A stretch of 64,000 bases of DNA from an uncultured Chloroflexia bacterium (GTDB lineage: Bacteria; Chloroflexota; Limnocylindria; Limnocylindrales; CSP1-4). Positions within the stretch are counted from its first letter, which is position 1; each line of letters begins with the position of its first letter. A program made the translations under genes and the position numbers. Below the pieces are notes generated by a model, which worked only from the letters and a program-made list of their open reading frames with translations, was not told where the DNA came from and did no database searches. The DNA lies in NCBI GenBank assembly GCA_963837215.1, contig CAWIML010000009.1, positions 222,739 to 286,738 of the forward strand, in the 5' to 3' direction. Below, one piece after another: positions 1,420 through 61,062 of this stretch.

Positions 1420-1449
1420 TTGGCGAGCGGTACCGTTTCCAGTTACGAT
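1420..1449 (+). promoter_or_regulatory. Candidate promoter (TTGGCG-18 nt-TACGAT) with operator-like CGGTACCGTTTCCAGT (1428..1443) in the spacer
   Basis: In the divergent gap between the CoA-transferase (start 1384) and enolase (start 1522) genes. The operator core is identical to 13154..13169. Confidence 0.5.
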
Positions 1450-1521
1450 TGCCGCTCGAATGGTCGCACCCCCGTCGCGCGTCCGTCAACCGGCCATGCC
1501 TCCGCCCAGAGGTCCCATCGG

Positions 1522-2661
1522 ATGCCCTTGAAGATCGAGTCCATCGAGACGATCCCCATCCGCGTCCCGCTGCCGTTCACCTACAAGGGCAGCTATTACA
1601 AGATGCGTAACCGGTGCACGATCATCACCCGCATACGCACTTCCGAGGGGATCGTCGGTGAGGCATACAACGCCGACGAAGACGAGCCGCTCCAGTCGGA
1701 GATCCTGTCGATCCTGCACGAGGAGCTGGCTCCGCTGGTCATCGGACTCGACGCCTTCTCCACCGAGCGGGTCTGGGAGGCGATGCTGCCGGTCACGTTC
1801 GACCAGCTCCGACCGCGCTGGTACGCCATGCAGGCGATGGCGTGCATCGACACGGCCGTCTGGGACGCCGTCGGCAAGGCGCTCGGGCAGCCGCTCTGGC
1901 GACTGTGGGGCGGATACCGCGATCGGCTCCCGATGATCGGGATCGGCGGCTACTACATCCCCGACGACGAGAGCTCCAAGGGCCAGGAGATCGAGCGCGA
2001 GATCGACTTCTTCCAGTCAGAGCATGGCATGGTCGGCATGAAGTTCAAGATCGGCGCCGAACCACCGCCGGTGGACGCGGCCCGGATGGCGCGGGCCCGA
2101 CGTCATGCGGGCGACGACTTCCTGTTCGTCGTCGACGCCAACCAGGGCTATACGGTGAGCGAGGCCCTGGACTTCGTGGCGGCAGTCCGCGCTGAGGGGA
2201 TCGCCATCCGGTGGTTCGAGGAACCTACCCGCTGGCATGCCGACTTCCGTGGCCTGCGCGATGTCCGCATGCGCGGCAACGTGGATGTAGCCGCGGGCCA
2301 GAGCGAGATCAGCCGTGTGGGCATGCGCGAGATGATGGCAGCCGGCGCCATCGATGTCTGCAACTACGATGCGTCATGGGGTGGCGGTCCAACGGAGTGG
2401 CGACGGATCGCCGCCCTTGCCGCCTCGTTCGACGTGCAGCTCGGCCACCACGAGGAGGCCCAGGTGGCCTCCCACCTCCTCGCTTCGCAGCCCCATGGCA
2501 CCTACGTCGAGGCCTTCTCGCCGGCGCGTGATCCCATCTTCTGGACGATGATCGAAAACCGCCCCGCGCTCATCGATGGCCAGTTCCCGTTGTCCGATCG
2601 CCCCGGCCTGGGGTGGATCCTGGACGAGGCATTCATCGGGCGCCATCGCGTCGATCGTTAG
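1522..2661 (+). CDS. Enolase-superfamily (mandelate racemase/muconate lactonizing type) acid-sugar dehydratase-like protein
   Basis: Start taken at internal ATG 1522 (MPLKIESIETIPIRVPL); the track extension back to 1342 covers the divergent promoter/operator. Motifs seen: KFKIG, VVDANQGY, WFEEP, AAGQSE. Close paralog of 9937..11118. Confidence 0.85.
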   Translation: MPLKIESIETIPIRVPLPFTYKGSYYKMRNRCTIITRIRTSEGIVGEAYNADEDEPLQSEILSILHEELAPLVIGLDAFSTERVWEAMLPVTFDQLRPRWYAMQAMACIDTAVWDAVGKALGQPLWRLWGGYRDRLPMIGIGGYYIPDDESSKGQEIEREIDFFQSEHGMVGMKFKIGAEPPPVDAARMARARRHAGDDFLFVVDANQGYTVSEALDFVAAVRAEGIAIRWFEEPTRWHADFRGLRDVRMRGNVDVAAGQSEISRVGMREMMAAGAIDVCNYDASWGGGPTEWRRIAALAASFDVQLGHHEEAQVASHLLASQPHGTYVEAFSPARDPIFWTMIENRPALIDGQFPLSDRPGLGWILDEAFIGRHRVDR

Positions 2662-3740
2662 CCCAGCCTCGCGCGCTCTTGCAACGGGACCCATGGCGGA
2701 GGTCGGTCCCCGAGCCACGGTGCGACCGGCGGCAGGTCACCCGGACGGTGGACTCCGGGCGGTGCTGCGATGGCCCGCGGGAGTCCGTTGACGATCATGG
2801 CGGCCGTGGACAGCAACGCCCGGCAGCCGGGCTCGACGCGGACCTTGAGGCTGTGTCTGCCCTCGAGCTCGATCTCGTCGACCGGTGACAGGCCGGCCGC
2901 GGTCGGGTCGACGTGCAGGGTCATCGAGATGTCGAGCCATGGCCGACCTTCGAACCAGCCGATGGCGCGTTGCTCCGCGCCGGCCGTTCGTCCCGGCATC
3001 ACCACGGCGCCATCGGGCAGCGTCAGCGGTCGGAGGGCGAGGATCGGTTCAGAGACGACCTCGATGCGCTCGAGTTCGCGACCCATCGACGTGGCCAGGA
3101 TGCGTAGGCTCTCCGGAAAGCCGGCATGCCCGACGACAGTCCCGTCTGCGATCCCGACTCGGAACGCGTCGGGCGCGAGATCGATGCCCAGGGACGACCG
3201 GACACGGGGTCCGAATCCGCTGACATCCACCACACGCCTGGCGCGCAGGCCCTGGACGTCCCATGCCAGGCCGGACAGGGTGAGCGGCCAGACATCAAGC
3301 ACGAAACCGGGATTGGCCCCGGTCGCCACGATCGGGATGCTGTGGGTGGACGCCAGCTCGATGATGCGATCGGCCGCCTCGGAGTCGCCGCTCCGGATGA
3401 ATGCCAGATCCTCCGCCGTGCAGACGATCGGCGTCCCAGTCGACGCGACTGTGGCCAGCACCGGCAGGACATCGACGAGGTGGGTGGAGGTCGCGACGAC
3501 GGCCACGTCCGGGTAGGTCGTGCGCATCGTCCCGATCAGGTCCGTGGAGCAGCGCAGCTCTGCCGGTGCGCCGGCGACGCGCTTCGAGGCGGCCTCTCCG
3601 TCGCGCTCGGGTGAGCGCACCACGATCGCCACGACCTCCAGCCAAGGTCGCGTGAGGGCCAGCTCGAGGACGGCCTGATTGGTCTTACCGAAGCCGACCA
3701 GCACGGCCCGGACGAGTCGAGCCATCACCGTCTGAACCAA
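2658..3740 (-). CDS. NAD(P)-binding oxidoreductase, DapB / amine-dehydrogenase-like (function uncertain)
   Basis: 360-aa ORF with an N-terminal Rossmann-like VLVGFGKTNQAVLE segment. It is the last gene of the minus-strand ABC operon, 8 nt after the ATPase stop. Confidence 0.5.
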   Translation of the reverse strand: MVQTVMARLVRAVLVGFGKTNQAVLELALTRPWLEVVAIVVRSPERDGEAASKRVAGAPAELRCSTDLIGTMRTTYPDVAVVATSTHLVDVLPVLATVASTGTPIVCTAEDLAFIRSGDSEAADRIIELASTHSIPIVATGANPGFVLDVWPLTLSGLAWDVQGLRARRVVDVSGFGPRVRSSLGIDLAPDAFRVGIADGTVVGHAGFPESLRILATSMGRELERIEVVSEPILALRPLTLPDGAVVMPGRTAGAEQRAIGWFEGRPWLDISMTLHVDPTAAGLSPVDEIELEGRHSLKVRVEPGCRALLSTAAMIVNGLPRAIAAPPGVHRPGDLPPVAPWLGDRPPPWVPLQERARLG

Positions 3741-3747
3741 GACCAGG

Positions 3748-7604: not shown

Positions 7605-7665
7605 CAGTCTGTCCTCCGTTTCGAGTAGTGGGTGAACGTCCCGCCCTCCTGCCAGACGTCCGGTT

Positions 7666-7707
7666 AGTATCGTTTCCAGCCCGGGTCGATGTCAACGTTA
7701 CTGGAAA
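7666..7707. promoter_or_regulatory. Two LacI-type operator-like sites (AGTATCGTTTCCAG and TCAACGTTACTGGAAA)
   Basis: Located in the 158-nt gap upstream of the SBP gene (start 7604). Both match the recurrent TGGWAACGWTWCCA-like motif with a central CG. Confidence 0.55.
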
Positions 7708-7762
7708 GGATTGCCGCTCAGGCACACCTGTCGAGCCTCTACCCGCCTGGGCCCGGCGATCA

Positions 7763-11118: not shown

Positions 11119-11119
11119 G

Positions 11120-12139
11120 TCAGCGACCGACGCTCGCCGTGACGGACGCCACGATCCTATCGACGGAGGGCAGGACCTCGTCTTCCAGGGGAGGCGTGTA
11201 AGGGATGGGTAGGTCGTCTGGCAGGCTGAGCCGTCGAGGAGCGCTGGCCCATTCGATGCCGCCGATGGTCAGTTCACTGACGATCGTCGCACCCCAGCCC
11301 GCTGCGTGGACCTGCTCCTCCACGACGACCAGGCGACCGGTCTTTTCGACCGACGCCCGCACGGTCGGCAGATCCAGTGGACGCAGCCAGCGCACATCGA
11401 TGACCTCGGCATCGATGCCGTCCTGGGCGAGCCGCTCGGCCGCTGCCAGGGCACGCTCGACCATCAACAAGGTGGCGACGATGGTGACGTCGCGGCCCTG
11501 CCGGAGTACCGCCGCCTTGCCGACTTCGGCGACCTCGCCACGGGTCACTGACCCCTTGCGGCCATACAGCCCCTTGTGCTCGTAGAAGATCGTCGGGTTC
11601 GAGGCGGCGATCGCCGTCCGGAGCAGTGCGTACGCGCTGGCGGGCGAGCTGGCCGTCACGACACGGAGTCCCGGCAGGTGCATGAACCAGCTCTCGCCGG
11701 TCGCGCTGTGCTGGGTCCCGAAACGGCCGGTGGCGCCGCAGATGGCACGGACGGTGACCGGCACAGCGGTCTGACCGCCAGACATGTAACGGTACTTGGG
11801 CAGCTGGTTGACGATGGCGTCGCCGGCGGTCGGCAGGAAGTCGGCGAACATGATCTCGACCACGGGACGCATGCCGACCAGGCTCATGCCGAGGGCCACG
11901 CCGAGGAACCCGTTCTCACAGATGGGGGTGTTCCTGATCCGCTCGGGCCCGTACTTCTCGGTCAGACCGACATTCGTCTTGAAGACGCCTCCGTCCGCGC
12001 CGACGTCTTCGCCCATCAGCAGAACGGTGGGATCGGACGCCATGGCATCGTCGAGCGCGGCGTTGATCGCCTCGCGATAGGTCAACTCGGTCGTGCCGCT
12101 ACCTCCGCCGGCCGGCGCGGCCTCAGTCAGCGTAGACAT
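11120..12139 (-). CDS. 2-oxoacid (pyruvate/acetoin-type) dehydrogenase E1 component, beta subunit
   Basis: LLMGEDVGADGGVFKTNVGLTEKYGPERIRNTPICENGFLG is the classic E1-beta N-terminus. ATG at 12139 overlaps the E1-alpha stop by 17 nt. Confidence 0.9.
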   Translation of the reverse strand: MSTLTEAAPAGGGSGTTELTYREAINAALDDAMASDPTVLLMGEDVGADGGVFKTNVGLTEKYGPERIRNTPICENGFLGVALGMSLVGMRPVVEIMFADFLPTAGDAIVNQLPKYRYMSGGQTAVPVTVRAICGATGRFGTQHSATGESWFMHLPGLRVVTASSPASAYALLRTAIAASNPTIFYEHKGLYGRKGSVTRGEVAEVGKAAVLRQGRDVTIVATLLMVERALAAAERLAQDGIDAEVIDVRWLRPLDLPTVRASVEKTGRLVVVEEQVHAAGWGATIVSELTIGGIEWASAPRRLSLPDDLPIPYTPPLEDEVLPSVDRIVASVTASVGR

Positions 12140-13088
12140 ACGGACGAGTCTCCTCGAGGGTCGGGTATGGGGCGGCTGCCGCGCGTTCGGCGGCAGCATC
12201 GATGTCAGCCTGGGTCTCGGTCCGCACCTCGACGTGGTCGTTGGGGCCCATCAGGCCGTCCGCCACGAGCACCTTGGCGAGCAGCTCGATCGGGTCTCGG
12301 GCCATCCACCGATCCAACTCACCTGCCGGGCGGTACTTCGCCGGATCGCTTCGGCTGTGGCCGCGATAGCGGTACGTCTTCATCTCGAGGAGCGTCGGCC
12401 CGCCGCCGCCGCGGGCGCGCTCCACCGCGACCGTCGTCGCCTCGTGGACGGCACCGACGTCCTGGCCGTCGACGATGATGCCCGGGAAGCCATATGGGTC
12501 CGCCCGGCGTGCGAGGTCATCGAGCGGGGTCGTCGCCCGCAGTGCGCTGTACTCGCCGTACAGGTTGTTGGTGATGATGAAGACGACGGGCGCATTCCAG
12601 ATGGCGGCCATGTTCATGGCTTCGTGGAACGTCCCGATGTTGGTGGCGCCGTCGCCGAAGAACGTGAGGGCGACGTTCGGCTTGCGCTGCATCTGGAAGG
12701 CGACCGCCGCCCCGACGGCGATCGGCAGGCCCGCGCCGACGATCGCGTTGGCTCCGATGTTGCCCTTGCTGAAATCGATGAGGTGCATCGAGCCGCCAAC
12801 ACCGCCCGAGCCGCCGGTCCGGCGACCCATCAGCTCCGCAAAGGCGGTCTCGGGCTCCATCCCAAGCGCCAGGGCCTCGCCATGGCCGCGATAGGTGTTG
12901 GTCTGGACGTCGCCTGGCCGCATGGCAGCGATGGCTCCCACGGATACGGCCTCCTGGCCCTGGCAGAGGTGCGTGGTGCCCTGGATCTGCCCGGACATGA
13001 ACAGCTCCTGGACCTTCTCCTCGAAGATCCGGATGCGGACCATGGTGTGGTACCAACCGAGCCGATCGGGCGGTGCGCTGGCGGTCAT
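12123..13088 (-). CDS. 2-oxoacid dehydrogenase E1 component, alpha subunit (TPP-dependent)
   Basis: 321 aa from ATG 13088. TPP motif GDGATNIGTFHEAMNMAAIWNAPVVFIITNN (GDG..NN). The upstream 194 codons of the track ORF look non-coding. Confidence 0.9.
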   Translation of the reverse strand: MTASAPPDRLGWYHTMVRIRIFEEKVQELFMSGQIQGTTHLCQGQEAVSVGAIAAMRPGDVQTNTYRGHGEALALGMEPETAFAELMGRRTGGSGGVGGSMHLIDFSKGNIGANAIVGAGLPIAVGAAVAFQMQRKPNVALTFFGDGATNIGTFHEAMNMAAIWNAPVVFIITNNLYGEYSALRATTPLDDLARRADPYGFPGIIVDGQDVGAVHEATTVAVERARGGGGPTLLEMKTYRYRGHSRSDPAKYRPAGELDRWMARDPIELLAKVLVADGLMGPNDHVEVRTETQADIDAAAERAAAAPYPTLEETRPYVYAD

Positions 13089-13153
13089 GGATCGTCGAGC
13101 CTCCGGAGTCGAGCCGCGTGGGACGAGGTAAAGCGGCCGGTGTCGCAGCCGAG

Positions 13154-13169
13154 CGGTACCGTTTCCAGT
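13154..13169. promoter_or_regulatory. LacI-type operator-like site CGGTACCGTTTCCAGT
   Basis: Lies between divergent E1-alpha (start 13088) and the LacI gene. It sits inside a 27-nt block (13150..13176) that matches 1424..1450 with one mismatch. Confidence 0.55.
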
Positions 13170-13260
13170 TTCGATTACACATCGTTGCATCCGATCCACC
13201 GTATCGTCAACCGTGGGCCCCGATTCCGCCCGCAACGGAACGGCCGCGGATAGACCGTGT

Positions 13261-13290
13261 GCTATCGTTCCTGCAACCGTTACTGGAACG
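13261..13290. promoter_or_regulatory. Operator-like sites directly upstream of the LacI gene (candidate autoregulation)
   Basis: Sequence GCTATCGTTCCTGCAACCGTTACTGGAACG contains the inverted repeat CGTTCC-N13-GGAACG and a copy of the CGTTACTGGAA element also seen at 7696..7706. It lies 24-53 nt upstream of ATG 13314. Confidence 0.45.
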
Positions 13291-13313
13291 ACAGCTGGCA
13301 CACGGAGGTGCGC

Positions 13314-14357
13314 ATGACCGAGCCGAGGCGGCAGGAAGGCCGCCGCAAGCGGGCGAGCATGCGTGAGGTCGCCGATCTTGCGGACGTGGCTATCTCCTCG
13401 GTCTCGCGCGTGCTGTCGGGACATCCAGATGTGAGCGCCGGGATGCGCGATCGGGTCTCGGCTGCCGTCGAGGAGCTCGAGTATGAGCCGGACTTCCTGG
13501 CCCAGAGCCTGCGTCGGGGCGCGACCCTGTCGGTCGGCTATGTCGTCGGCGACATCTCCAACCCGCTGATCGCTACGATCACATCCGGGGCCGAGTCGGT
13601 CCTGCGATCCGCCGGCTACTCGATGCTGCTCATGAACTCGGAGGGAGATCCCGAGTTGGACGCGGCGCACATCCGCTTCTTCCAGGCTCGGCGGGTCGAC
13701 GGCATGATCCTGTCACTGGCGAGCGAGCGGCGGCAGGCCACCCTTGACGGGCTCGCCCAGGTCGATGTCCCGATCATCATGATCGACCGCGACGTTCCAG
13801 CCGACCTCCGCGCCAGCATCGTTCGCAACGATCATCGCGCGGGGATGCGCGAGGGCGTCGGCCACCTGCTCGACCTCGGCCACCGCCGTATCGCCCTGAT
13901 CACGGGTGCTCTCGATCTGTGGCCGGTTCGCGAACGCATCGCCGGCATGGCAGAAGCGGTCACCGCCCGGGGCCTGCCAGACGAGACGATCAGCCTCGTC
14001 GGCTCACTCTCGGCGGAGCACGGCGAGCGCAGCACGGAACAACTCCTCGCCATGCATCCGCGCCCGACGGCGATCGTGGCAGGCGGCAACCAGGTCCTGG
14101 CAGGTTGCGTGCGCGCGATCGTGCGCCATGGCGTGCGCGTGCCGGACGACATGTCTCTCATCACCTGCGACGAGGTCGACCTGTCCGAGCTCTATTCCCC
14201 GCCCATCGCCTCGATCGCGCGCGACACGCTGCTGCTTGGACGGACCGCGGCCGAACTGCTGCTCGAACGCCTCAACGACGGCGAGCCGCGCACGGTGCTG
14301 TTGCCCACGAGCTTCACGGCGCGACCGAGCTGTGGCCCGGTCCCTGCGGAGGGCTAG
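13314..14357 (+). CDS. LacI-family transcriptional regulator
   Basis: N-terminal HTH MREVADLADVAISSVSRVLSG followed by a periplasmic-binding-fold effector domain. GGAGG RBS 5 nt upstream of ATG 13314. It is the only regulator gene in the window. Confidence 0.9.
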   Translation: MTEPRRQEGRRKRASMREVADLADVAISSVSRVLSGHPDVSAGMRDRVSAAVEELEYEPDFLAQSLRRGATLSVGYVVGDISNPLIATITSGAESVLRSAGYSMLLMNSEGDPELDAAHIRFFQARRVDGMILSLASERRQATLDGLAQVDVPIIMIDRDVPADLRASIVRNDHRAGMREGVGHLLDLGHRRIALITGALDLWPVRERIAGMAEAVTARGLPDETISLVGSLSAEHGERSTEQLLAMHPRPTAIVAGGNQVLAGCVRAIVRHGVRVPDDMSLITCDEVDLSELYSPPIASIARDTLLLGRTAAELLLERLNDGEPRTVLLPTSFTARPSCGPVPAEG

Positions 14358-14474
14358 GAGGGCGCACGCGGTCAGTACGGGCTGACCGCCAGTCCGCCGG
14401 TGGCCGGTCAGCGTCCTTGAGGCTGGCCGCGATCCGCGTGAGGTGGTCGGGCAGCGTTCCCGGGCCTGCGCACG

Positions 14475-14501
14475 TGGTAACGTTTGCAGAACCGCTACCA
14501 G
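14475..14501. promoter_or_regulatory. Two overlapping LacI-type operator-like sites (TGGTAACGTTTGCAGA / GCAGAACCGCTACCAG)
   Basis: About 75-100 nt upstream of the corrinoid-activase gene. TGGTAACGTTTGCA is a near-palindrome with a central CG. It is nearly the reverse complement of the site at 36372..36388. Confidence 0.55.
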
Positions 14502-14574
14502 CGAGCGAGGGTCCGCCGGCCGATGCTGCGCGTCCCTTGACGACCGCTCGCGCGGCGCGACACAGGAGTCCCGC

Positions 14575-16185
14575 GTGCCAGACGTCATCCACGGGGTCGA
14601 CCGCCGTCCACTGATCGCCGGCCGGACGTTGTTCGACTACGCGGATGAGGTATCGGCCGCGGTGCCAGCCTCGTGTCGACGGACCGGGCGCTGCAGGGAA
14701 TGCGTCGTCGAGGTTCGCCAGGGCGGCGCCGGGCTGTCGCCGCGGACCGAACCCGAGGGGTACCTGCGAGGGCAGTTCCGGCTGGCCTGCCAGGCGCGCA
14801 TCGAGGACGCGGGCAGCGACGTGGAGTTCTCCATCATCCGTCGCCGGCTGCGGATCCTGGGCCCCGTGGACCGGCCCATCGGTCGCGTGGATCCGGTCGT
14901 CACGGCGGACGATCGAACGGTGTACTACGCCGGCCAGCCGATCGGCCTGCGTCGCCCGCGCGTGCTGGGATTGGCTATCGATGTCGGCACCACGACGGTG
15001 GTCTTCCAGGTCATCGACCTGTTGACAGGCGTTGCCATCGCTGGCGGCGCGCTGGAGAACCCGCAGCGCTTCGGCGGCAGCGATGTGATGACCCGGATCT
15101 CGTACGAGAAGGACTTCCCGGGCGCCATGCGACTGGCTCTTCGTCGAGCGCTCAATCACGAGCTTCGCGACCTCTACCAGGCGCAGGGCATCGATCGGCA
15201 CGAGGTCTATGAAGCGATGGTCGTCGCCAACAGCACCATGCGCGACCTGTTCTTCGGGATCGACATCTCGCCCATCGGCGAGTTCCCGTACAAGTCGCTG
15301 ACTGAGGTTGCCATGCTGGCCGGTGGGGCCTCCTCCACCTGGCTGCGACGGCGCGGGCACGAGGTCGGGCTGCTGATGAACCCGCATGGTCGGGTGGTCG
15401 GAGCGCCCTTGATCGCCAGTCACGTCGGCGCGGATACGGCCGCCGATCTGATCGCCGTCGACTTCGCCGCCGGCACGGGCGTGCGGATGCTCGTCGACAT
15501 CGGCACCAACACCGAAGTCGTCGTCACCGATGGAACGCGCTACCTTGCCGCGTCCTGTCCAGCCGGGCCCGCCTTCGAAGGCGGCCTCATCAGGTTCGGC
15601 ATGGCTGGTGCGGACGGGGCCATCGAGTCGGTCCGACTGGACCGCGACCGGTTCTCGTTCGGGACGATCGGCCACGTCGAGCCGGTCGGCATCTGTGGAT
15701 CCGGCCTCGTCGACATCCTCGCCGAGCTCCGCCGGGCGGGCTGGATGAACACCGAAGGGCGCTTCGCTGACGGGGTCGATGAATACCTCGTTGCGCCGGG
15801 CCAGGGGATCAGCTTTTCGCGATCGGATGCCAGCCTGCTCGCCCAGGCCAAGGCCGCGAACGCATGCGGACAGCGCATCCTGCTGCGACGTCTGGGAGTC
15901 ACGGCCGATCAGATCGATCGGGTCTACCTGGCCGGAGGATTCGCGAACGCGGTGAGCGTGGTGAATGCCATCGAGATCGGGCTCCTGGCGCCGGTCCAGG
16001 TGAACCGGGTCGATCGGGTCGGCAACGCCGCACTTCAGGGGGCGGTCGCGTTGCTCCTCTCAGCCAGCCGTCGCGACGAGCTCGAAGCGCTGGTCGGCCG
16101 GATCGAACATGTCGAGCTTGAGACCGAAGAGGACTTCTTCGAGCTGTTCGTCGACGGCTGTCGGTTCATCCCCATCGCCGCCTGA
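14575..16185 (+). CDS. Corrinoid reductive activase (RACo-like): N-terminal [2Fe-2S] ferredoxin domain fused to an ASKHA ATPase domain
   Basis: GTG 14575 with AGGAG 7 nt upstream. Plant-type ferredoxin Cys pattern CRRTGRCREC...LACQ. ASKHA blocks LAIDVGTTT, MLVDIGTNTE, GICGSG and YLAGGF. Confidence 0.8.
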   Translation: MPDVIHGVDRRPLIAGRTLFDYADEVSAAVPASCRRTGRCRECVVEVRQGGAGLSPRTEPEGYLRGQFRLACQARIEDAGSDVEFSIIRRRLRILGPVDRPIGRVDPVVTADDRTVYYAGQPIGLRRPRVLGLAIDVGTTTVVFQVIDLLTGVAIAGGALENPQRFGGSDVMTRISYEKDFPGAMRLALRRALNHELRDLYQAQGIDRHEVYEAMVVANSTMRDLFFGIDISPIGEFPYKSLTEVAMLAGGASSTWLRRRGHEVGLLMNPHGRVVGAPLIASHVGADTAADLIAVDFAAGTGVRMLVDIGTNTEVVVTDGTRYLAASCPAGPAFEGGLIRFGMAGADGAIESVRLDRDRFSFGTIGHVEPVGICGSGLVDILAELRRAGWMNTEGRFADGVDEYLVAPGQGISFSRSDASLLAQAKAANACGQRILLRRLGVTADQIDRVYLAGGFANAVSVVNAIEIGLLAPVQVNRVDRVGNAALQGAVALLLSASRRDELEALVGRIEHVELETEEDFFELFVDGCRFIPIAA

Positions 16186-16217
16186 GCGAGGGCTCCCACG
16201 CACGGAGGGATCAACCG

Positions 16218-17294
16218 TTGTCAGGGTCTGGAGTCGCACCGTCGTTCATCGTCATCGGCGAGAACATCCATACCAGCCGAGTCGTCCGACGCGATGGCCC
16301 ACGCATCGCTGCGTCCGCATCCGGGGCGCCGATGATCCGCGTGCCGATGGGCGCTGGCGACGCCTTGCTGCCTGTTCCGCCGGCCGTCCAGGCGACGCGC
16401 GAGTTCGCCGCCGGGCGAGTGAAGCACGTGATGGTGGCCGTCCTTGAAGGGATGTCCAACGGCCCGGATGCAGACATCGCGGCGACCTACGTCCGCTGGA
16501 TGGCGACCCGCCAGATCGCTGGCGGCGCCGCCTACCTGGATCTCAACGTGGACGAGATATCCCCGGACGTCGACGGGCGCCTGCGTGCCATGGCCTGGTT
16601 GGTCGGCGTCGTGGGCCCGGTCACGACGGTCCCGCTGTCGATCGACTCTTCGGACTCGGCGGTCATGACGCTCGGTCTCGACCTGCTCGACCCTGGCTGG
16701 GCGCTCGGCGCGCCACCGCTGCTGAATTCGGCGGCGGCTGATCGTGTCGACGTGCTCGGCATGGCCGCAGAGCGAGGCTGCCCGGTCGTCCTGTCGTCGA
16801 CTGGAGCGACCATGCCCAGCGGGACGGAAGAGCGCATGGTCCGGGCCATCGAGATGATCGAGATGGGGCTCGGCCACGGCTTGCCTCTTTCAGACATGCA
16901 CGTTGACCCGTTGGTCATCCCGATCGGCGTCGACGCCGAGGCGGGAACGGCGTACCTCGAGGCCGTGCGGCAGCTTCGGCATCGCTTCGGGCCCGAACTG
17001 CACATCACGGGCGGCGTCTCCAACATCTCCTTCGGGATGCCGGCCAGGCGCCTGATCAGCGACGTCTTCCTCGACCTCTGCGTACAGGCCGGCCAGGACA
17101 GCGGCATCGTCGACCCGGTCGCCGCGGATGTCGCCCGCGCGCTCGCGCCCGACCGTGCCTCCGAGACCTACCGCCTGGCAGCGGACCTGCTGACCGGCGT
17201 CGATGCCTTCGGGGTGGAGTACCTCGAGGCCTTCCGGTCCGGTCGCCTGTCGGGACCGGAACCGGGGGCGGCCCGCACGATGGCGTCGTCGTAG
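16218..17294 (+). CDS. Pterin-binding (MtrH/AcsE/MetH-like) methyltetrahydrofolate:corrinoid methyltransferase-like protein
   Basis: TTG start with GGAGGG 7 nt upstream. IVIGENIHTS, YLDLNVDE, PLSIDSS, LLNS and GGVSNISFG blocks match dihydropteroate-synthase-like pterin-binding barrels. Confidence 0.7.
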   Translation: MSGSGVAPSFIVIGENIHTSRVVRRDGPRIAASASGAPMIRVPMGAGDALLPVPPAVQATREFAAGRVKHVMVAVLEGMSNGPDADIAATYVRWMATRQIAGGAAYLDLNVDEISPDVDGRLRAMAWLVGVVGPVTTVPLSIDSSDSAVMTLGLDLLDPGWALGAPPLLNSAAADRVDVLGMAAERGCPVVLSSTGATMPSGTEERMVRAIEMIEMGLGHGLPLSDMHVDPLVIPIGVDAEAGTAYLEAVRQLRHRFGPELHITGGVSNISFGMPARRLISDVFLDLCVQAGQDSGIVDPVAADVARALAPDRASETYRLAADLLTGVDAFGVEYLEAFRSGRLSGPEPGAARTMASS

Positions 17295-18016
17295 CTCATC
17301 TCGAGCCGTTCGCCGGGGCGCAGGATCTGGAAGTCGTCGTCCCACTCGCCGAACAAGAGCTTCCGGACCAGTCTCAGGTCCGCGAGGGTCCGCTCGAACC
17401 GCCAGCCTCGACGTTCAGATTCCTCCCTGGCGCGCTGCTCGGCGGCCTCGGACGGCGCAAGCCCGGTGTCGATGAAGGCACCTCGCTCGTACCTGGCGCT
17501 CCACTCACCGAGGACCTCCATGAGGTACGCCGCGTTGTCCTCGCCGAAGCGTTCCGTGTACTCCGCCCGGGTCGACTGCACGTCCTCCGCACGAGCGGCA
17601 TCGCCCAGGAGCCAACCCTTCAGGTCGTTGCCCCTGTCCATCTGGTCCTGGACGTACCAGTAGGTGCCAGGCGTCGCCTCGTGCTCCTTCCGGTACCGGG
17701 CGCGATCTCCCAGGAAGATGGTCACGCAATCGTGGGCTCGGGCCAGGACGATGGGAGCCGACCGGGCGATCAGGCCAGCCGTGGCTCCGCCGCACAGGCC
17801 ATAGGCGAGGACCACCGCGTCGATCTCCGGACCGGCCTTGTCCACCTCGATCTGGATCCGTTCACGGAGCGTGGCGGGCTCGGCATGCAGCGCGGCGCTG
17901 AGCTGGACCACGTCCACCGCATGTGGCGAGCTGGCGGCGAAGAAGTGGACGGGGCGCAGCAGGATGTCGCAGGAGATCGCCAGCAGATGCAGACCTGACG
18001 CCTGGCTCGGGTCCAT
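17168..18016 (-). CDS. DUF1638-domain protein (commonly next to corrinoid methyltransferase genes)
   Basis: 282-aa ORF immediately downstream of the B12-binding protein gene. Assigned from memory of DUF1638-like sequence (AVVLAYGLCGG...). Its 3' end overlaps the convergent gene by 127 nt. Confidence 0.6.
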   Translation of the reverse strand: MDPSQASGLHLLAISCDILLRPVHFFAASSPHAVDVVQLSAALHAEPATLRERIQIEVDKAGPEIDAVVLAYGLCGGATAGLIARSAPIVLARAHDCVTIFLGDRARYRKEHEATPGTYWYVQDQMDRGNDLKGWLLGDAARAEDVQSTRAEYTERFGEDNAAYLMEVLGEWSARYERGAFIDTGLAPSEAAEQRAREESERRGWRFERTLADLRLVRKLLFGEWDDDFQILRPGERLEMSYDDAIVRAAPGSGPDRRPDRKASRYSTPKASTPVSRSAARR

Positions 18017-18029
18017 GACCAGCCTGCGG

Positions 18030-18710
18030 TCAGCTGGCAGCCGCGGCGCTGGCAGCGCCGGTCTTGCTCGCGGCGCGAGCCTCGGCGACCAGGCGCCGGG
18101 CGAGGATGACGGCGGATGCGGCGTCCGGCGCCCATCCGTCAGCGCCGATCTGCTCGGCGAACTCCTTGGTCACGGCCGCGCCACCGACCATGACCTTGAG
18201 GTCGGGCAGGTCATCTGCGGCGCGGACCGCCTCGATGACGACGCGCATGCCGCCCATCGTCGTCGTCAACAGCGCGCTGATCCCGATGATGTCCGCCTTG
18301 TGCTCGCGTGCAGCGGCCATGAACCGATCCACCGACACGTTCGTGCCAAGGTCGAAGATCTCGAAGTTGGCACCCTTCAGCATCATGCCGACCAGGTTCT
18401 TTCCGATGTCGTGCAGGTCGCCCTTGATCGTGCCCATGACGGCGATGCTGTCAGGTTTGTAGCCAGACCCGATCAGGAGCGGCTCGAGGAGCGCCACGGC
18501 GGCCTTCATGGCACGCGCGCTGATGAGCATCTCCGGGACGTAGATCTCGTTGTCCTGGAAGCGCTGTCCGACGACACCCATGGCATCGGTCATCGCATCC
18601 AGCACCGTCTTCGGGGGGATCTCCTCGTCGATCGCCTGCTGGGTGACCTCGACCGCGGTCTCGCGGTCGCCGACCTCGACGGCCGTCTGGAGTCGTTTGA
18701 GATCCGCCAT
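18030..18710 (-). CDS. Corrinoid (B12-binding) methyl-carrier protein (MtaC/MtbC/MttC-like)
   Basis: N-terminal B12-cap helix bundle, then DxHxxG (GDLHDIGKN), SxL (GISALLTTT) and GG (VMVGGAAV) cobalamin-binding motifs. Confidence 0.9.
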   Translation of the reverse strand: MADLKRLQTAVEVGDRETAVEVTQQAIDEEIPPKTVLDAMTDAMGVVGQRFQDNEIYVPEMLISARAMKAAVALLEPLLIGSGYKPDSIAVMGTIKGDLHDIGKNLVGMMLKGANFEIFDLGTNVSVDRFMAAAREHKADIIGISALLTTTMGGMRVVIEAVRAADDLPDLKVMVGGAAVTKEFAEQIGADGWAPDAASAVILARRLVAEARAASKTGAASAAAAS

Positions 18711-18743
18711 GCTCCGTTGGTCTCCTGTAGCTCGGGGGCGAGT

Positions 18744-19844
18744 TCAGCCGGGAAAGGTGCTCGTGGACGGGTCAGGTCGCACCACGAAGGCACCCTCGCC
18801 ACGGCGCAGCTTCGACCAATCGCGCGCTGCGGCAGCGATGGCCATCAGGGGCTCCTTCTTGGTGACCAGGGGCACGGATCCCTCCGGCGCCAGGCCGTCC
18901 ACACCCTGGTCCAGCAGGTCCCAGCAGGTTCGGTAGACGTCCTCGGCCGTGCCCTGGTACAGCAGGGTGGGGTTGTTGAGGTTGCCCATCAAGGCCATCC
19001 GCTCGCCGGCCGCCGCGCGAGCCTCGCGGGCGTCGACCTGGGACTCGAAGTGGAAGACATCCCAGCCAGCGGCCGCGAAGAGATGGACCCTGTCGATGGT
19101 CTTGCCGCAGCAGTGGAAGATGCCCGGCCCGCCCATCTCCTGGGTGACGCGCTGATGCATCTCGAGCAGGAAGTCCCGGTAGGTCTCGGCGCGACAGAGG
19201 TCCCCGGTCGTGTGATCGGCCCACATGATGGCGTCGGCGCCGGCCTCGAACTGGGCTCGAGCCGACGCGATGCATGGGACCACGAAGGCGTCCAGGTAGC
19301 GCTTGATCTTGTCAGGGTCGAGCATCACGTCCATCAGGAAGCTCTCGATGCCGACCATCTGATACCCGACCGACCATGGGCCATAGACCTTGCCCACGAT
19401 GGCGACGTCCGGATAGCGCTGACGCAACAGTCTGATCGCCCCCGTCACGGCGGCCATCGTCGGGCGCTCGACGAAGTCGTCCGGCATCTTGACCTGCTCC
19501 GGCTCCTCGATCGTGAACCGCGACGGCGACGGCCAGTTGTCCTTCTCGGCCCACTCCGTTTCGCCGCCCAGGGCGTCCGACTCGAGCTGCGAATGGAAGA
19601 CCGGCATGATGGTGTCCATGTCGAACACGTCGTGAGCTGTCGCAGCGAGTCGGGCCATGAGCTCGGCGTCGAGGTGCGCTTCGGGGAATGGCGCCCCGAC
19701 CAGGTCCATCATCTCGACCGTCACGACCGAACTCAGTGTGCAGGCCGGGACCCGGTCGACATGTCCACGATAGATCGCCGACAGGAAGCGCCGGCGAGGG
19801 GTCATCCACTCTCCCTTGAGTGGGTGCGTGACTTCAGCGATCAT
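18744..19844 (-). CDS. Uroporphyrinogen-decarboxylase (UroD/MtaA) family methyltransferase
   Basis: 366 aa from ATG 19844, with AAGGAG 9 nt upstream. UroD-family barrel with an FHCCG motif (the His-x-Cys position of MtaA-type enzymes). The track ORF extension to 20189 is antisense to the dehydrogenase gene. Confidence 0.75.
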   Translation of the reverse strand: MIAEVTHPLKGEWMTPRRRFLSAIYRGHVDRVPACTLSSVVTVEMMDLVGAPFPEAHLDAELMARLAATAHDVFDMDTIMPVFHSQLESDALGGETEWAEKDNWPSPSRFTIEEPEQVKMPDDFVERPTMAAVTGAIRLLRQRYPDVAIVGKVYGPWSVGYQMVGIESFLMDVMLDPDKIKRYLDAFVVPCIASARAQFEAGADAIMWADHTTGDLCRAETYRDFLLEMHQRVTQEMGGPGIFHCCGKTIDRVHLFAAAGWDVFHFESQVDAREARAAAGERMALMGNLNNPTLLYQGTAEDVYRTCWDLLDQGVDGLAPEGSVPLVTKKEPLMAIAAAARDWSKLRRGEGAFVVRPDPSTSTFPG

Positions 19845-19878
19845 CTGCGACGACTCCTTGGCATCGATCGTGTGGTCG

Positions 19879-20949: not shown

Positions 20950-20993
20950 TGGATCGGGACTCCTTTCTCCGTGCTCCGTCGGCTGCCATCGTG

Positions 20994-21048
20994 TTGACGC
21001 GGTGGAACGACGACGACTACAGTTGCCACCGGGTGGAAACGACTCTGG
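20994..21048 (+). promoter_or_regulatory. Candidate sigma-70-type promoter (TTGACG-18 nt-TACAGT) followed by operator-like TGGAAACGACTCTGG
   Basis: -35 at 20994..20999, -10 at 21018..21023, operator-like site at 21034..21048. Located in the 259-nt divergent region between 19879..20949 (-) and 21209..22348 (+). Confidence 0.4.
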
Positions 21049-21208
21049 GAATGATATCAGACACGATCCAGGGCTGATTCACAAGACCTCCCGCGGAGGC
21101 TGGACGACGACCGATCGGGCGGTCATCTCCGAACCCGGTGTGCGCCAGCGAGGAGCCCTTCCAGAGACGCCGCGCATCGCCTCGGTCAACCGAAAGGAGC
21201 CACGACTC

Positions 21209-25305: not shown

Positions 25306-25333
25306 TTCCTTTCAAGATCACGAAGGTGTTGCT

Positions 25334-25347
25334 GAGGAAAACGATCC
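25334..25347. promoter_or_regulatory. Weak operator-like site GAGGAAAACGATCC
   Basis: In the divergent gap between 24199..25305 (-) and the permease gene (+). It carries one extra A relative to the GGAAACG core. Confidence 0.3.
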
Positions 25348-25441
25348 GCTGGCACACTGGGCGCAGACGATCTCGAGATCGACCGGGTCTTCCGGTCCCC
25401 GTTCACCATCGTAGCCCGCAGTGCGTCGCTCAGGAGACCCG

Positions 25442-36350: not shown

Positions 36351-36399
36351 TGGTATCGTGCTCGCAACCAGTCTGCAAACGCTACCGGTATCGTCAAGC
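36351..36399. promoter_or_regulatory. Cluster of three operator-like sites (TGGTATCGTGCTCGCA, TCTGCAAACGCTACCGG, CGGTATCGTCAAGC)
   Basis: Fills much of the 111-nt divergent gap between the DMT gene and Cys-rich paralog 1. Confidence 0.5.
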
Positions 36400-43092: not shown

Positions 43093-43123
43093 GCCTGGAG
43101 CCTAGCAGACCGAATCGGCCGCG

Positions 43124-43139
43124 TGGTATCGTTTCCTGA
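43124..43139. promoter_or_regulatory. LacI-type operator-like site TGGTATCGTTTCCTGA
   Basis: In the 126-nt divergent gap between the SDR (start 43092) and the SBP (start 43219). Confidence 0.55.
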
Positions 43140-43218
43140 CGGTCGCCCGCGCACCGCCCGGCCTCACGGATCCACGACTTCCAGCGCGGCATGTCAGGTC
43201 CAGCAGGAGGATCGATCG

Positions 43219-47971: not shown

Positions 47972-48003
47972 TATGCTACTTGCCTCGCTGGAAACGTCAC
48001 CAG
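47972..48003. promoter_or_regulatory. Possible -10 (TATGCT) plus operator-like GCTGGAAACGTCACCAG
   Basis: In the divergent gap 47941..48044. The same TATG[CA]TACTTGC..GCTGGAAACG arrangement recurs at 61036..61062. Confidence 0.5.
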
Positions 48004-48044
48004 CCAAGGCATGCAACCGGCTCGGCCGACGGAGGAGAACGCCG

Positions 48045-49846: not shown

Positions 49847-51725
49847 CGTTCGCGCGCCGCGGCGAAGACGAAACCCCCGCCGACGGGCGCGACCCGCGCC
49901 TGACCCGACTCTCGCCGTCGCTGTGGTGGTTCCGCGACACCTGCAACGTCTTTGTGTGGACCGCCGGCGAGCGGGGACTGCTCATCGACTTCGGGTCGGG
50001 CGGCGATCCTCGATGTGCTCGACCAGATCGGCGTTCGCGAGGTCGTGGCCATCGCCCACACGCATCACCATCGCGATCAGTGCGGCGGGGATGATCGCGC
50101 GGTCGAGCGCGGGATCCCGATCTGGGTGCCGGAGCGCGAACGTGCGTTGTTCGATCAGACGGAGGCGTTCTGGCGGGTCCGCCGCACCTACGACAGCTAC
50201 GACGCGTCCAGCCTGGGCTTCACGCGCGCATCGTCGGTCCCGGTCGCGCGGGCGCTTGCCGACGGCGAGCGAGTCCGATGGGCGGCCGGCAGCATGGAGA
50301 TCGTCCCGACACCCGGCCACACCAAGGGCTCCATCAGCCTGCTCGCGGAGATCGACGGGACGCCGGTCGCGTTCACGGGCGACCTCATCGCGGGCCACGG
50401 CCGGGTCCCGACCCTGCACGATCTCCAGTGGCAGTACGGGATGCCGGATGCGGTCGGGGCGGCGCTGCATTCCGTCACGGCGCTCGCGGGGCGGGGTCCT
50501 ATCGCATGTCCTCCCGTCGCACGGTGCCCCGATGGACAAGGGTCTGACGGCCCTGCGCGCGCTGGCGGGGAACCTGCGCACCCTCGCCCGACTCCTGGCG
50601 GAGATCCGTCGCAATCGACTCTGGACGACCTGGCCGAGCAGCGTCGACCAGCCGCTCGCGCACGTCCTGCCACACCTGTGGGTCAACAGCCACAGCGTCG
50701 CCAACACGTACGCGCTCGTCGACGATGCCGGGGACGCCATGATCCTGGACTACGGCTTTCCTTCCTGGGATCACTTCTTTGCGGACCAGCGCTTCGTGGC
50801 CCACACCATGGATACCTTCAGCGCGGAGGCTGGCGTGCGGCGGGTCGTCGCGGCCATCCCGAGCCACTATCACGACGACCACCTGGCAGGCGTGCCCTGG
50901 CTTCAACGGGAGCACGGCGCGCAGGCATGGATCCACGAGTCATTCGCCGCGATCGTGTCGGATCCGGCGCGTCACGACCTGCCCTGCCTCTGGCCGGAGC
51001 CGATCCGGGTCGACCGGGTGCTTGCCGATGGCGATGTCATCGAGCACGCCGGCGCGCGTTTCGAAACGTTCCACATGCCAGGGCACACGATGTTCGCCAT
51101 GGGTCTGGCCGGCAGTTTGGACGGCATACGGGTGGCGTACACGGGCGACAATCTGCTCGCTGGCGCGCTGAGTCCATTGCGGGCAGCCGCGCCCATCTAC
51201 CGCAATGTCATGCGGCACGACTCCATCCGCGTCGGGGTGGAGCGCCTCATGGCGTACGAACCGGAGCTGCTGCTGACGGGTCACACTGGAGCGCTGGAGG
51301 TGACCCGCGCCGACCTAGACGACTTCGTCGCCTGGGCCCGCGAGCTGGAGCTGGTCGTCGCTCGGTTGGCGCCCATGCCCGGGCTGGAGGACGAGGCGCT
51401 CGATCCGTACGTCGCGCGGTTCGACCCCTACCGCGCGACGGTCGTCGCAGGCACGCGTGCAGAGACGCGCCTCACCGTGCGCAACCACATCGCCGAGGCG
51501 CGAGACGTCCGCGTCCGGGTCCGAGCCCCGATAGGCTGGCTCGTCGAGCCGGTGGAGGCGAACGCGCTCGTGCCAGGCGGCGGCGAGACCGTCACCTTCT
51601 CGTTCAGCCTGGCCGTCCCTCCGGCCGCCGCCCCGGGTCGGGCCGTCGTCACCGCCGAGGTGGATCTCGGCGATCAGCCGCGAGGCGAGCTCGCAGAGAC
51701 CCTTCTGGAGGTCCTAGCCGCATGA
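49843..51725 (+). pseudogene. Double metallo-beta-lactamase-fold protein, two +1 frameshifts
   Basis: The GTG 49843 frame (LWWFRDTCNVFVWTAGERGLLIDFGSG) shifts at about 49995-50005 to AILDV..AHTHHHRDQ..TPGHTKG. It shifts again at about 50489-50498 to VLPSHGAP... and a second MBL domain (SHYHDDHLAG, MPGHT, TGHTG). Confidence 0.65.
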
Positions 51726-55658: not shown

Positions 55659-56750
55659 TCAGTCTGGCTGGATGACTGGCAATGCCGGCTTGGATCGGCC
55701 GATTCGCTCGTACTCACGCTCGGGGATGGCCTCGAGCGTCTTCCACACGGTCCACTTGCACTGCTTGCGAGTCAGCGGGTCATCCTCCCCGCGCCACAGC
55801 GGCGGGTCCACGGTGCGGATCGGGTGGCCCCAACGCTCGGCCGGCAACGTCGAGAGCGTCAGGTTGCAGTGCGCGCAGTAGTAGCAGACACCGACCTCAT
55901 TCCAGGCCCACGGATGTCGCTCCTGAGTGACCCCGAAGTCATATGGGGCGAGGACTCGGGATCCCGTGCCCTCGATCTCGTCGCCGCGGACCTGGCGCCC
56001 ACCGGAGCCGCACGGATCGAAGCGCAGCTCCCAGCGATCATCGAACTCCACGAGGTCGATGTCGCCACGTCGGCCGGGCCCGACCAGATGCGCCCGCATC
56101 GCCTCGAGGGAGATGTACAGGTTTCGGACGAGGGTCTCGGCATACGGCCGAAGCCGCGTGTCGAAGACCATGTAACGCTCCTGGATGTACGGCTCCAGGA
56201 CCGATCGGTAGCACGGTTCCAGGGCCGCCTCGCCGAACCGCCTGGCCACGAAGGCCAGGACCCCGGCCATGAGGTCGGCGTAGCGATCGTGCAGGCGTCG
56301 CCAATCTGCGACCAGCGTCTCGAGGGCGCTTTCTCCGTCAGCGACCGATAGTTCGTAGCTGCGGATGCCGTTGCCCAGGGCGCCGGCAGACTCGCCCAGG
56401 GCTGCCCAGCGCACGGCCGGGTCGAGCGGGGTGCCATCCGGCCAAGCCATCAGCGTGCGAAGCCGCGACAGCTCGGCCTCGAGGTCGTCCTCGCTGACGC
56501 CCTGCTCGCGCAGCCAGGCGAGGAAGCCTGCCGTCCAAACGTCGTAGATGACGTAGACGACCTTGGCTTCCTCCATGAAGTAGTCGACCAACTGCGCCGC
56601 GGTCTCGCGACGGCCTGCGCCTGGCCCGAACGTGTCTCCGGCCTCGCGCAATGCCTCCTGGATCTTCGTGACCGTCGATATGGCCTGATCCGCCCAGTCG
56701 CCGGTGCGGACGCGCTTGCCGATCTCCTCGGACCACGTCAGGTGAGTCAT
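55659..56750 (-). CDS. Uncharacterised Cys-rich protein family, copy 3 (intact)
   Basis: 363 aa. EAMRAHLVGP, RFDPCGSGGR, GDEIEG, GVCYYCAHC, GHPIRTVDPP, QCKW and GRSKP. Lies between the ABC permease (21-nt gap) and the lactonase (12-nt gap). Confidence 0.8.
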   Translation of the reverse strand: MTHLTWSEEIGKRVRTGDWADQAISTVTKIQEALREAGDTFGPGAGRRETAAQLVDYFMEEAKVVYVIYDVWTAGFLAWLREQGVSEDDLEAELSRLRTLMAWPDGTPLDPAVRWAALGESAGALGNGIRSYELSVADGESALETLVADWRRLHDRYADLMAGVLAFVARRFGEAALEPCYRSVLEPYIQERYMVFDTRLRPYAETLVRNLYISLEAMRAHLVGPGRRGDIDLVEFDDRWELRFDPCGSGGRQVRGDEIEGTGSRVLAPYDFGVTQERHPWAWNEVGVCYYCAHCNLTLSTLPAERWGHPIRTVDPPLWRGEDDPLTRKQCKWTVWKTLEAIPEREYERIGRSKPALPVIQPD

Positions 56751-60492: not shown

Positions 60493-60612
60493 CGGTCGCC
60501 TGCTCCTTCGGGGATTGATCTGGTCCACGATTCCTCCTCCGATTCCAATGGTCAGCGACCGTGGCTGATGGATGGTCGACGGTGGCTGAGCTCCGCGGCG
60601 GCGAGAACGGTT

Positions 60613-60629
60613 TCTGGAAACGTCGTCAG
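60613..60629. promoter_or_regulatory. LacI-type operator-like site TCTGGAAACGTCGTCAG
   Basis: About 120 nt upstream of the SBP start (60492). Confidence 0.5.
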
Positions 60630-60682
60630 TGCCGCGCCCGCGGAGACTAGTGCCGGGCATTCCACGGTGTCAAGTCATGCCG

Positions 60683-60982
60683 TCACTGCCCGCCGGGTCG
60701 TTCCGGGTCGGTGGGATGCGCGGCGAGGGGGACGACCTCGACGTCAAGGTACGGAAAGAACGGCAGTGAGCGGATCGCGGCATGGAGGGCCGTGGCGTCC
60801 TCGGCCTCCCAGAGCCCCCAGTTGGCTCGACGACCAGGCACTCGCCACATCCGCCGGATCGTGCCCGCAGCACCGAGTTCGGCGCCACGGTCGCGCTCTG
60901 CCGCCGTCAGGCGGACGAGTTCGTCAGGGTCACCGTCGGCCGGCCACATGACCTCGATGTTGACCAGGAACTCCACCCTCAT
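60683..60982 (-). CDS. Muconolactone delta-isomerase (CatC) family protein
   Basis: MRVEFLVNIEV..., RRMWRVPGRRANWGLWEAEDATALHAAIRSLPFFPYLDVEVVPLAAHP aligns with the WR..G..AN...D.....LH.....LPLFPY.D.EV.PL..HP signature. The start could alternatively be 61015. Confidence 0.75.
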   Translation of the reverse strand: MRVEFLVNIEVMWPADGDPDELVRLTAAERDRGAELGAAGTIRRMWRVPGRRANWGLWEAEDATALHAAIRSLPFFPYLDVEVVPLAAHPTDPERPGGQ

Positions 60983-61035
60983 CGCCTCCACAACGAGCTC
61001 TTGGGCCTTGCCCATGATTCGAACATGAGTCCCGG

Positions 61036-61062
61036 TATGATACTTGCTGGAAACGCTTGCAC
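61036..61062. promoter_or_regulatory. Possible -10 (TATGAT) plus operator-like GCTGGAAACGCTTGCAC
   Basis: In the divergent gap between the CatC-family gene and the lipoyl-domain gene. TGGAAACGCTTGCA is a near-palindrome. Confidence 0.5.

Follow-up and report, generated by a model that had tools for sequence, protein, structure and literature searches.

A CG-centred palindrome recurs in the promoter gaps of a 64,000-nucleotide stretch of contig CAWIML010000009.1 (hereafter the window), a dense catabolic island devoted to sugar catabolism in an uncultured soil Chloroflexota bacterium. These repeats are likely to be the operators of one LacI-family repressor, most probably the one encoded at 13314-14357. 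The palindrome is 16-20 bp long, with the consensus (TA)CTGGAAACGTTTCCAG(TA) and half-sites that are typically TGGAAAC and TGGTAnC, and it forms 12 clusters (~20 individual sites) over 11 intergenic regions, with site centres 28-104 nucleotides (nt) upstream of the start codon. In 12 regulatory regions, the sites overlie the promoter or follow it closely downstream. We infer binding by the 13314-14357 protein because its gene adjoins the sites, it has autoregulatory sites of its own, its recognition helix is invariant in orthologues, and the sites end at the edge of the island.

An initial annotation of this DNA had proposed that a LacI-type motif is almost confined to promoter gaps, and the counts agree. 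With the degenerate consensus given there, TGGWAACGWTWCCA, and up to three mismatches, the window has 27 strand matches, against 6.5 +/- 3.4 in shuffled sequence (0 of 100 shuffles reach 27); at this threshold there are 13 intergenic matches, against 0.23 expected, and three coding matches. At two mismatches or fewer, eight matches fall in the 2,976 bp of intergenic DNA and none in the 61,376 bp of coding DNA, and dinucleotide shuffles of the intergenic DNA alone yield 0.017 on average and never more than 1. A 20-bp matrix, once symmetrised, settles on the consensus TACTGGAAACGTTTCCAGTA, and 12/12 core sites have a central CG. When each of the 12 core sites is left out in turn, all window positions that score at least as high as that site on the resulting position weight matrix are intergenic. 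The intergenic-versus-coding matrix check suggested earlier, carried out here within the window, gives 13 intergenic sites and 0 coding sites at scores of at least 12 bits. A motif-blind search for 7-mers enriched in intergenic DNA returns the same element, the top words being CTGGAAA, TGGAAAC, GGAAACG and ACGATAC, all above the Shine-Dalgarno words; CTGGAAA occurs 7 times in intergenic DNA (0.22 expected) and twice across all coding DNA. Intergenic G+C is 66.9%, nearly that of the genome, so composition is not the cause of the enrichment. Among the papers listed by a literature search, none contained the 14-mer variants of the motif as strings, and the matches to the 9-mer CTGGAAACG were irrelevant. 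The 12 clusters, with scores from the matrix and distances to start codons, are as follows.

s1, 1425-1456: operator (20.5 bits) between the divergent CoA-transferase (minus strand) and enolase-superfamily 1 (plus strand) genes; a weak partner lies 12 bp away; centre 50 and 88 nt from the two start codons.
s2, 7662-7718: cluster of operators preceding the ABC system 1 operon (minus strand, 7604 down to 2658); elements at 7662 (20.8 bits), 7699 (10.5 bits) and 7687 (6.0 bits).
s3, 13151-13182: operator (20.5 bits) preceding the E1 alpha operon (minus strand, 13088 down to 7763); centre 72 nt from the E1 alpha start.
s4, 13257-13288: double operator (9.7 and 17.3 bits) over the LacI promoter; centres 36-48 nt upstream of ATG 13314 and 12 bp apart.
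s5, 14472-14503: double operator (22.2 and 13.1 bits) upstream of the RACo and pterin-methyltransferase genes.
s6, 21031-21062: double operator (15.0 bits) between the GFO/URO-D/B12-binding operon (minus strand) and the enolase 3/SDR/ADH operon (plus strand); its second site (21043) scores 17.3 bits in relatives.
s7, 35424-35443: operator (19.8 bits) upstream of the RhaM-like/isomerase-like/P450 operon (minus strand); centre 28 nt from ATG 35406.
s8, 36351-36399: operator with core 36371-36390 (19.5 bits) and two flanking half-sites, at centre spacings of 23 and 12 bp, between EamA (minus strand) and a gene of an unnamed family (plus strand).
s9, 43121-43140: operator (18.4 bits) between the SDR...enolase 4 operon (minus strand) and the ABC system 3 operon (plus strand); centre 38 and 88 nt from the two starts.
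s10, 47986-48005: operator (21.1 bits) between the XylIso-TIM/PTE operon (minus strand) and the SDR/PTE/MBL/amidohydrolase operon (plus strand).
s11, 60600-60631: double operator within the leader of the ABC system 4 operon (minus strand, 60528 down to 52881); the main site scores 16.9 bits and has a weak partner at -12.
s12, 61045-61064: operator (18.7 bits) between a muconolactone-isomerase-like gene (minus strand) and the lipoyl/E2-catalytic/ceramidase-like operon (plus strand); centre 56 nt from ATG 61110.

The sites annotated at 1428, 13154, 13261-13290 (two), 14475-14501 (two), 21034 (with a second at 21043), 35427, 43124, 47987, 60613 (with 60600) and 61046 are all recovered, as is the pair at 7666, where the first site is strong and the second element (7687-7718) weaker. 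The triple at 36351-36399 keeps its central site (36374); its neighbours at 36351 and 36386 have low scores (2.1 and -3.1 bits), yet relatives conserve them as half-sites. The weak site at 25334-25347 is rejected at -6.6 bits, and the figure of at least 13 intergenic regions comes down to 11 regions with 12 clusters, 13154 and 13261 lying in one common region. The form claimed for the sites, that of LacI-family operators, stands: they are even palindromes with a central CG, placed upstream of starts and nearly absent from coding DNA.

The gene map was made from codon statistics, and all 63 gene products were scanned against Pfam and NCBIfam. Its first version put the sites at 36371, 60612 and 61045 within genes. 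Reading of the DNA showed that the longest open reading frames of the three genes concerned, for EamA, the substrate-binding protein of ABC system 4 and the lipoyl domain, had overrun the true starts, which were revised to 36317, 60528 and 61110, respectively. A plus-strand gene starting at 36429 and a small muconolactone-isomerase-like gene at 60683-60982 were added. With starts thus corrected, every strong site, and all 12 core sites, are intergenic. One match in coding DNA (18685-18704, codons 2-8 of the B12-binding gene) scores 15.4 bits under the first matrix and 9.8 under the 12-site one, reaches 18.2 bits in the relative L001, and is kept in relatives, including a CGA arginine codon. 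Since the whole N-terminal stretch around it is equally conserved, the match is indistinguishable from coding constraint and is probably coincidental. It was taken as background, as were a match at 55573 (15.1 bits with the first matrix, less than 8 bits with the 12-site matrix) and matches at 27726, 46741 and 54274 (8-12 bits with the 12-site matrix).

Between them, genomes and metagenome contigs of Candidatus Limnocylindria (Chloroflexota) have all 12 clusters at the orthologous promoters, and the adjoining proteins there are 57-88% identical. A contig 97.3% identical to ours is also present in ENA (found via the LacI protein). The relatives were reached through several proteins of the island:

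L001-L014: loci of LacI orthologues (70-88% identical) in 14 assemblies labelled Chloroflexia, Chloroflexota or Candidatus Limnocylindria/Limnocylindrales; where the sequence covers them, matrix matches recur upstream of ABC system 1, E1 alpha, the regulator, RACo and enolase 3.
Metagenome contigs, via the protein at 41151-42290 (71-79% identical): s8, s9 and s10 seen.
L026, via the orthologue of the MBL-fold protein (83% identical): s7, s8 and s10 seen.
L027, via the orthologue of the MBL-fold protein (70% identical): an s8-like site, s10, s11 and s12 seen.
L028, via the orthologue of the MBL-fold protein (57% identical): s7, s8, s10 and s11 seen.
L029-L031, via CoA-transferase orthologues: s1 seen.

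Aligning the two intergenic regions beside the regulator gene with those of ten relatives shows operators without variation, the rest of the DNA being 51-59% identical. Here s3 falls within an invariant block of alignment A1 (11 genomes), s4 is itself an invariant block of that alignment (TGTGCTACCGTnCCTGAAACCGTTACTGGAAC), and s5 is an invariant block of alignment A2 (CGGTAACGTTTGCAGAACCGCTACCAGCGTGGGATAGTCCG). Farther out, s1 is kept in all of L029, L030 and L031; s2 in L001-L014 except L011, whose sequence begins downstream of the region, and in L029-L031; and the entire s8 block in L026, L028 and L020. Orthologous sites were found for s7 in L026 (21.1 bits) and L028 (22.0 bits), for s9 in L018-L021, L023 and L024, for s11 in L027 and L028, and for s12 in L027 (18.3 bits). 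Present in L019, L026, L027 and L028, the s10 operator is invariant at 17/18 positions of an alignment of five sequences (A4), with CTGGAAACGT and ACCAG fixed and one position C/A. Gene order inside the island differs among relatives, and the operators move with their operons. In L029-L031 the conserved island stops at the CoA-transferase gene and the DNA beyond differs in all three, so that the CoA-transferase gene marks a variable island boundary; at a threshold of at least 13 bits, these three relatives have 7 sites in 34 kb inside the left edge and 0 in 30 kb outside it. In L029 (contig_6991, 11309-21296) the island adjoins an rnpA-yidD-yidC / dnaA-dnaN-recF region, the presumed replication origin. 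Relatives also have extra strong operators at promoters that are absent or rearranged in the window, one between two divergent SDR genes and one upstream of an MBL-fold gene (L002 4350, the equivalent of L029 2838, and L027 9809), which indicates that regulon membership shifts with gene order.

The candidate repressor is encoded on the plus strand:

13314-14357, plus strand: LacI-family repressor gene, 347 aa, with GGAGG 6 nt before ATG 13314.

This gene was annotated earlier as the only LacI gene of the window, starting at ATG 13314, and the Pfam scan agrees, with this protein as the sole DNA-binding match among the 63 genes. Its LacI-type helix-turn-helix (PF00356) scores 49.8 bits (cut-off 27) at residues 34-79 of the long open reading frame and aligns with the RbsR and LacI headpieces, and its effector domain, which is periplasmic-binding-protein-like, matches PF13377 (Peripla_BP_3) at 112 bits and PF00532 (Peripla_BP_1) at 85 bits. 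Full-length alignments were obtained to the RbsR, LacI, PurR and CcpA structures. The nearest solved homologue is E. coli RbsR (9ny7, 150 bits), with the helix-turn-helix and the hinge LAQSL aligned; the hinge YEPDFLAQSLRRG corresponds to YAPSALARSLKLN in RbsR and YIPNRVAQQLAGK in LacI. In the established LacI and PurR structures, the leucine of the hinge helix inserts in the central CpG of the operator. Across the nine full-length orthologues that were aligned, neither the recognition helix (VAISSVSRVLS) nor the hinge varies, and the motif stays the same. The protein falls below all NCBIfam equivalog cut-offs, including those for RbsR (NF047341, 183 against 382 bits; NF007743, 176 against 531), PurR (159 against 501), CytR, and CcpA (TIGR01481, 136.7 against 442), and by these scores it is a generic LacI-family member without a named orthologue. 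A homologue in the betaproteobacterium Pelomonas sp. Root1237 (L016, 31% identity) was considered as evidence on specificity and set aside, its recognition helix being different and the comparison uninformative. A similar palindrome, ATGTGGTATCGTCACCACAT, lies at L016 9972-9991, just upstream of that LacI-family gene's own start. Autoregulation of the island repressor, also proposed initially, is a fair inference from the conserved double site s4, which by eye covers an extended -10-like element (TGCTATCGT) of the regulator promoter.

We think it unlikely that the sites, while real LacI-type operators, are read by another LacI-family protein encoded elsewhere, whether a global CcpA-like catabolite regulator or paralogues of overlapping specificity; the LacI protein of the window would then be one target, or one reader of several. 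The motif does fit a loose form of the cre pattern, which we take to be TGNAANCGNWNNCA, and similar operators are common among LacI paralogues. The predicted regulon, with ~55 target genes in up to 18 transcription units and 12 site clusters, also reaches the size called 'global' in a survey of LacI-family regulators, which is more than 15 genes in at least seven operons (PMC4052901). Against such a reader stand the score of the regulator, far under the CcpA cut-off, the clustering of sites round the regulator gene and their end at the island edge in three relatives, the absence of a second regulator gene within the 64 kb, and the conserved double sites on the regulator's own promoter, autoregulation being typical of local LacI regulators.

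It is much less probable that the repeat is a common promoter element, such as one read by an alternative sigma factor, or a small dispersed repeat that was carried along when promoter cassettes were duplicated. Some half-sites coincide with -10-like or -35-like hexamers, and two pairs of operator-bearing promoter segments are near duplicates (1422-1452 and 13148-13178; 47972-48003 and 61036-61062). By eye, the flanks of s1 and s3 are nearly identical over ~30 bp, their 20-mers are the same, and s10 and s12 have TATG(C/A)TACTTGC...CTGGAAACG in common, which suggests that promoter-operator cassettes may have been copied as the island grew. However, the motif is a dyad with a central CG, most sites are without common sequence beyond the 16-20 bp core, only the core is invariant in the footprints, and its placement is not constant (on the -35, on the -10, or past the start site), unlike that of a fixed promoter element. 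A chance build-up of an A+T-rich word, to which the relatively A+T-rich core of the motif might point in a genome of 68% G+C, is refuted by an intergenic composition about equal to that of the genome, by the eight matches against 0.017 expected in intergenic-only shuffles, and by orthologous conservation at 20 or more independent loci.

The positions of the sites relative to promoters would fit repression by occlusion or by an early roadblock. A strict sigma-70-type scan of the 64 kb returns three promoter-like sites, no more than expected by chance, and two of the three are on operators. One, TTGACA-18-GATACT (7695-7666, minus strand), has its -10 within s2 and its -35 within the second s2 element; the other, TTGACG-18-TACAGT (20994-21023), ends 8 nt before s6. 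The latter is one of two promoter-site pairs described initially and was found by this neutral scan; the other, at 1420-1449, matches at only 8/12 positions and is absent from the scan results. Two further assignments were read by eye: TTGCAG-17-GATAGT, which s5 overlaps, and TTGACA-18-TAGTCT, with s11 downstream of it. In addition, s10 is preceded by a conserved -10-like TATGCT, and s12 directly follows a -10-like TATGAT.

At five or more promoters the operators come as overlapping pairs with a 12-bp centre spacing. A partner of at least 6 bits at a centre spacing of exactly 12 bp, to either side, accompanies 4/12 core sites (0.14 expected, given the site itself), no partner occurs at other offsets, and a more permissive reading adds s1, s3, s2 and s8. 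Both members of these pairs are invariant in relatives, and the 12-bp pairing is non-random. A 26-bp super-palindrome was considered for the double sites and rejected, as no dyad at the midpoint relates the two centres; they are read as overlapping operators. Upstream of 110 operons, overlapping LacI-family sites with a spacing of ~13 bp are on record, and such sites are reported as functional for E. coli GntR (PMC4052901), so that overlapping operator pairs are an already known feature of the family. The pairs described here resemble those of GntR at gntKU (PMC4052901) in that the overlap falls within the base-contact zone and is kept in orthologous promoters; they differ from the ~13-bp type in a spacing of exactly 12 bp, to which s8 adds one of 23 bp, and they are known from sequence.

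Under the reading that we prefer, with the 13314-14357 protein as repressor, a dimer would bind each operator, each helix-turn-helix reading one half-site and the hinge-helix leucine entering the central CpG. Without inducer, the bound repressor would stop RNA polymerase binding or early elongation, silencing up to 18 transcription units (~55 of the 63 genes) and, in part, its own gene. A candidate inducer, perhaps a sugar or sugar-acid intermediate, would release the repressor, and the whole island would be induced together.

Several observations weigh against this reading. The ABC system 2 operon (25442-32020, ABC system 2/RhaM/SDR/AKR/lipocalin-like) and the divergent gene 24199-25305, separated by the gap 25306-25441, have no credible site; they are the sole units of the island without the operator, and may be constitutive or under another regulator. 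The ~55 genes are an upper estimate, as one site in a divergent region may govern one direction only. Most promoter assignments were made by eye. The scan outside the island covered ~30 kb, and a paralogous or global LacI-family protein with the same specificity could be encoded elsewhere. Finally, the 12-bp pairs would clash with simple double occupancy, since in canonical LacI-DNA geometry the two dimers would compete for the same major groove.

A broader interpretation, which we offer only tentatively, is that one autoregulated LacI-type repressor acts as the master switch of a multi-pathway island of ~60 kb and 55 genes, global in size and physically clustered, with one inducer, one composite substrate and graded double-operator control. 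If so, three sugar importers and sugar-acid pathways would be coupled to corrinoid-dependent and P450 demethylation and to a 2-oxoacid dehydrogenase. The one inducer would point to a single composite substrate in nature, such as methylated or branched sugars of plant walls, for a soil class that is abundant and uncultured (Limnocylindria), and the double operators, with their 12-bp overlap, would allow control that is graded or in alternative registers. The gene content of the island, at 64-72% G+C along its length (~68% overall), is as follows.

Four sugar ABC importers, CUT2-type (ribose-type); operator at systems 1, 3 and 4.
Five enolase-superfamily genes (dehydratases).
Many short-chain and GFO/IDH-type dehydrogenase genes.
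Lactonase-like genes: SMP30, PTE and amidohydrolase_2.
Two RhaM-like mutarotase genes.
Corrinoid methyltransferase set: RACo activase, pterin-binding protein, B12-binding protein, URO-D-like methyltransferase and DUF1638.
P450; CoA-transferase; 2-oxoacid dehydrogenase E1 alpha/beta and split E2.
36429-37545, 41151-42290 and 55659-56750: three paralogues of an unnamed ~370-aa family.

The motif had been said to join four ABC systems, which holds for systems 1, 3 and 4 and fails for system 2. It does join, as also claimed, the corrinoid methyltransferase genes, the P450 operon, E1 alpha/beta, the split E2 and the three ~370-aa paralogues. These paralogues are mutually 33-56% identical, match no Pfam or NCBIfam family, and each lie in a separate operator-controlled operon. 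A complete corrinoid methyltransferase set and a P450 (14575-20189 and 32029-33321) sit inside a sugar-acid island behind the same operator, which suggests, speculatively, demethylation of methylated sugars or similar substrates. The versions of the island in relatives include an apionate-lactonase-family gene (L027 1804-3774; Pfam Apionate_lact_N/M/C) and, in L026, an aldehyde:ferredoxin oxidoreductase gene within the ABC system 4 operon, both of which are hints on substrate range. The genes at 36429-37545, 34758-35406 and 49923-51725 have a frame-broken look. The first, of the unnamed family, is spread over overlapping frames (36429-37214 and 37093-37545) that jointly match the paralogues at 41151-42290 and 55659-56750 over their full length; the RhaM-like region at 34758-35406 is broken in the window and is a single 214-aa gene in L026; and the MBL-fold protein (49923-51725) aligns over only 67% of its length to ~617-aa homologues. 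Such split or truncated genes are probably indel errors of long-read assembly, or pseudogenes.

Limnocylindria are common in soils and fresh water. A literature search returned no report of a cultured member, and the Limnocylindria papers found do not treat gene regulation. Here, a conserved operator offers a means to delimit a co-regulated gene set from sequence alone, and it would tie the three ~370-aa paralogues, the corrinoid methyltransferase set and the P450 to sugar catabolism. The candidate repressor-operator pair is cloneable, and its inducer would name the substrate.

Compared with E. coli RbsR and PurR, the island regulator has a common fold and domain order, RbsR being both its best NCBIfam match and its best solved homologue, and the operators of all three are even palindromes with a central CG. 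Presumably, the inner core AAACGTTT is common to the island motif and to the RbsR and PurR operators, and the outer bases differ, being TGG/CCA here and what we take to be GCG/CGC there. RbsR and PurR govern the ribose operon or scattered purine genes, whereas ~55 genes in one island are predicted as targets here. In a survey of 1,303 LacI-family regulators, 1,173 had motifs in the form of even palindromes centred on CG, over 75% of sites lay 30-140 bp upstream of start codons and less than 1% in coding DNA, and 72% of the regulators were autoregulated; 69% controlled one or two operons, and 93% of regulons had 20 genes or fewer (PMC4052901). The island shows all of the qualitative features, in the form of its sites, their 28-104 nt placement and their footprints. 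Its predicted target modules look heterogeneous (sugar-acid enzymes, corrinoid methyltransferases, P450, E1/E2), and could still serve one composite substrate. The CcpA-cre system of Firmicutes and FruR, PckR, GapR and GluR (PMC4052901) are alike in placing many operons under one CG-centred palindrome. Their targets are scattered through central metabolism, whereas those here cluster beside the regulator gene, which is not a CcpA orthologue and appears autoregulated, with 0 sites in the 30 kb outside. The predicted regulon is exceptional only in size, and a contiguous island round an autoregulated gene is the habit of a local regulator. It would fall within the top few percent of LacI-family regulons by size, yet behaves as a local, autoregulated one, and is a new, large case of a well-known system that is itself of a textbook kind.

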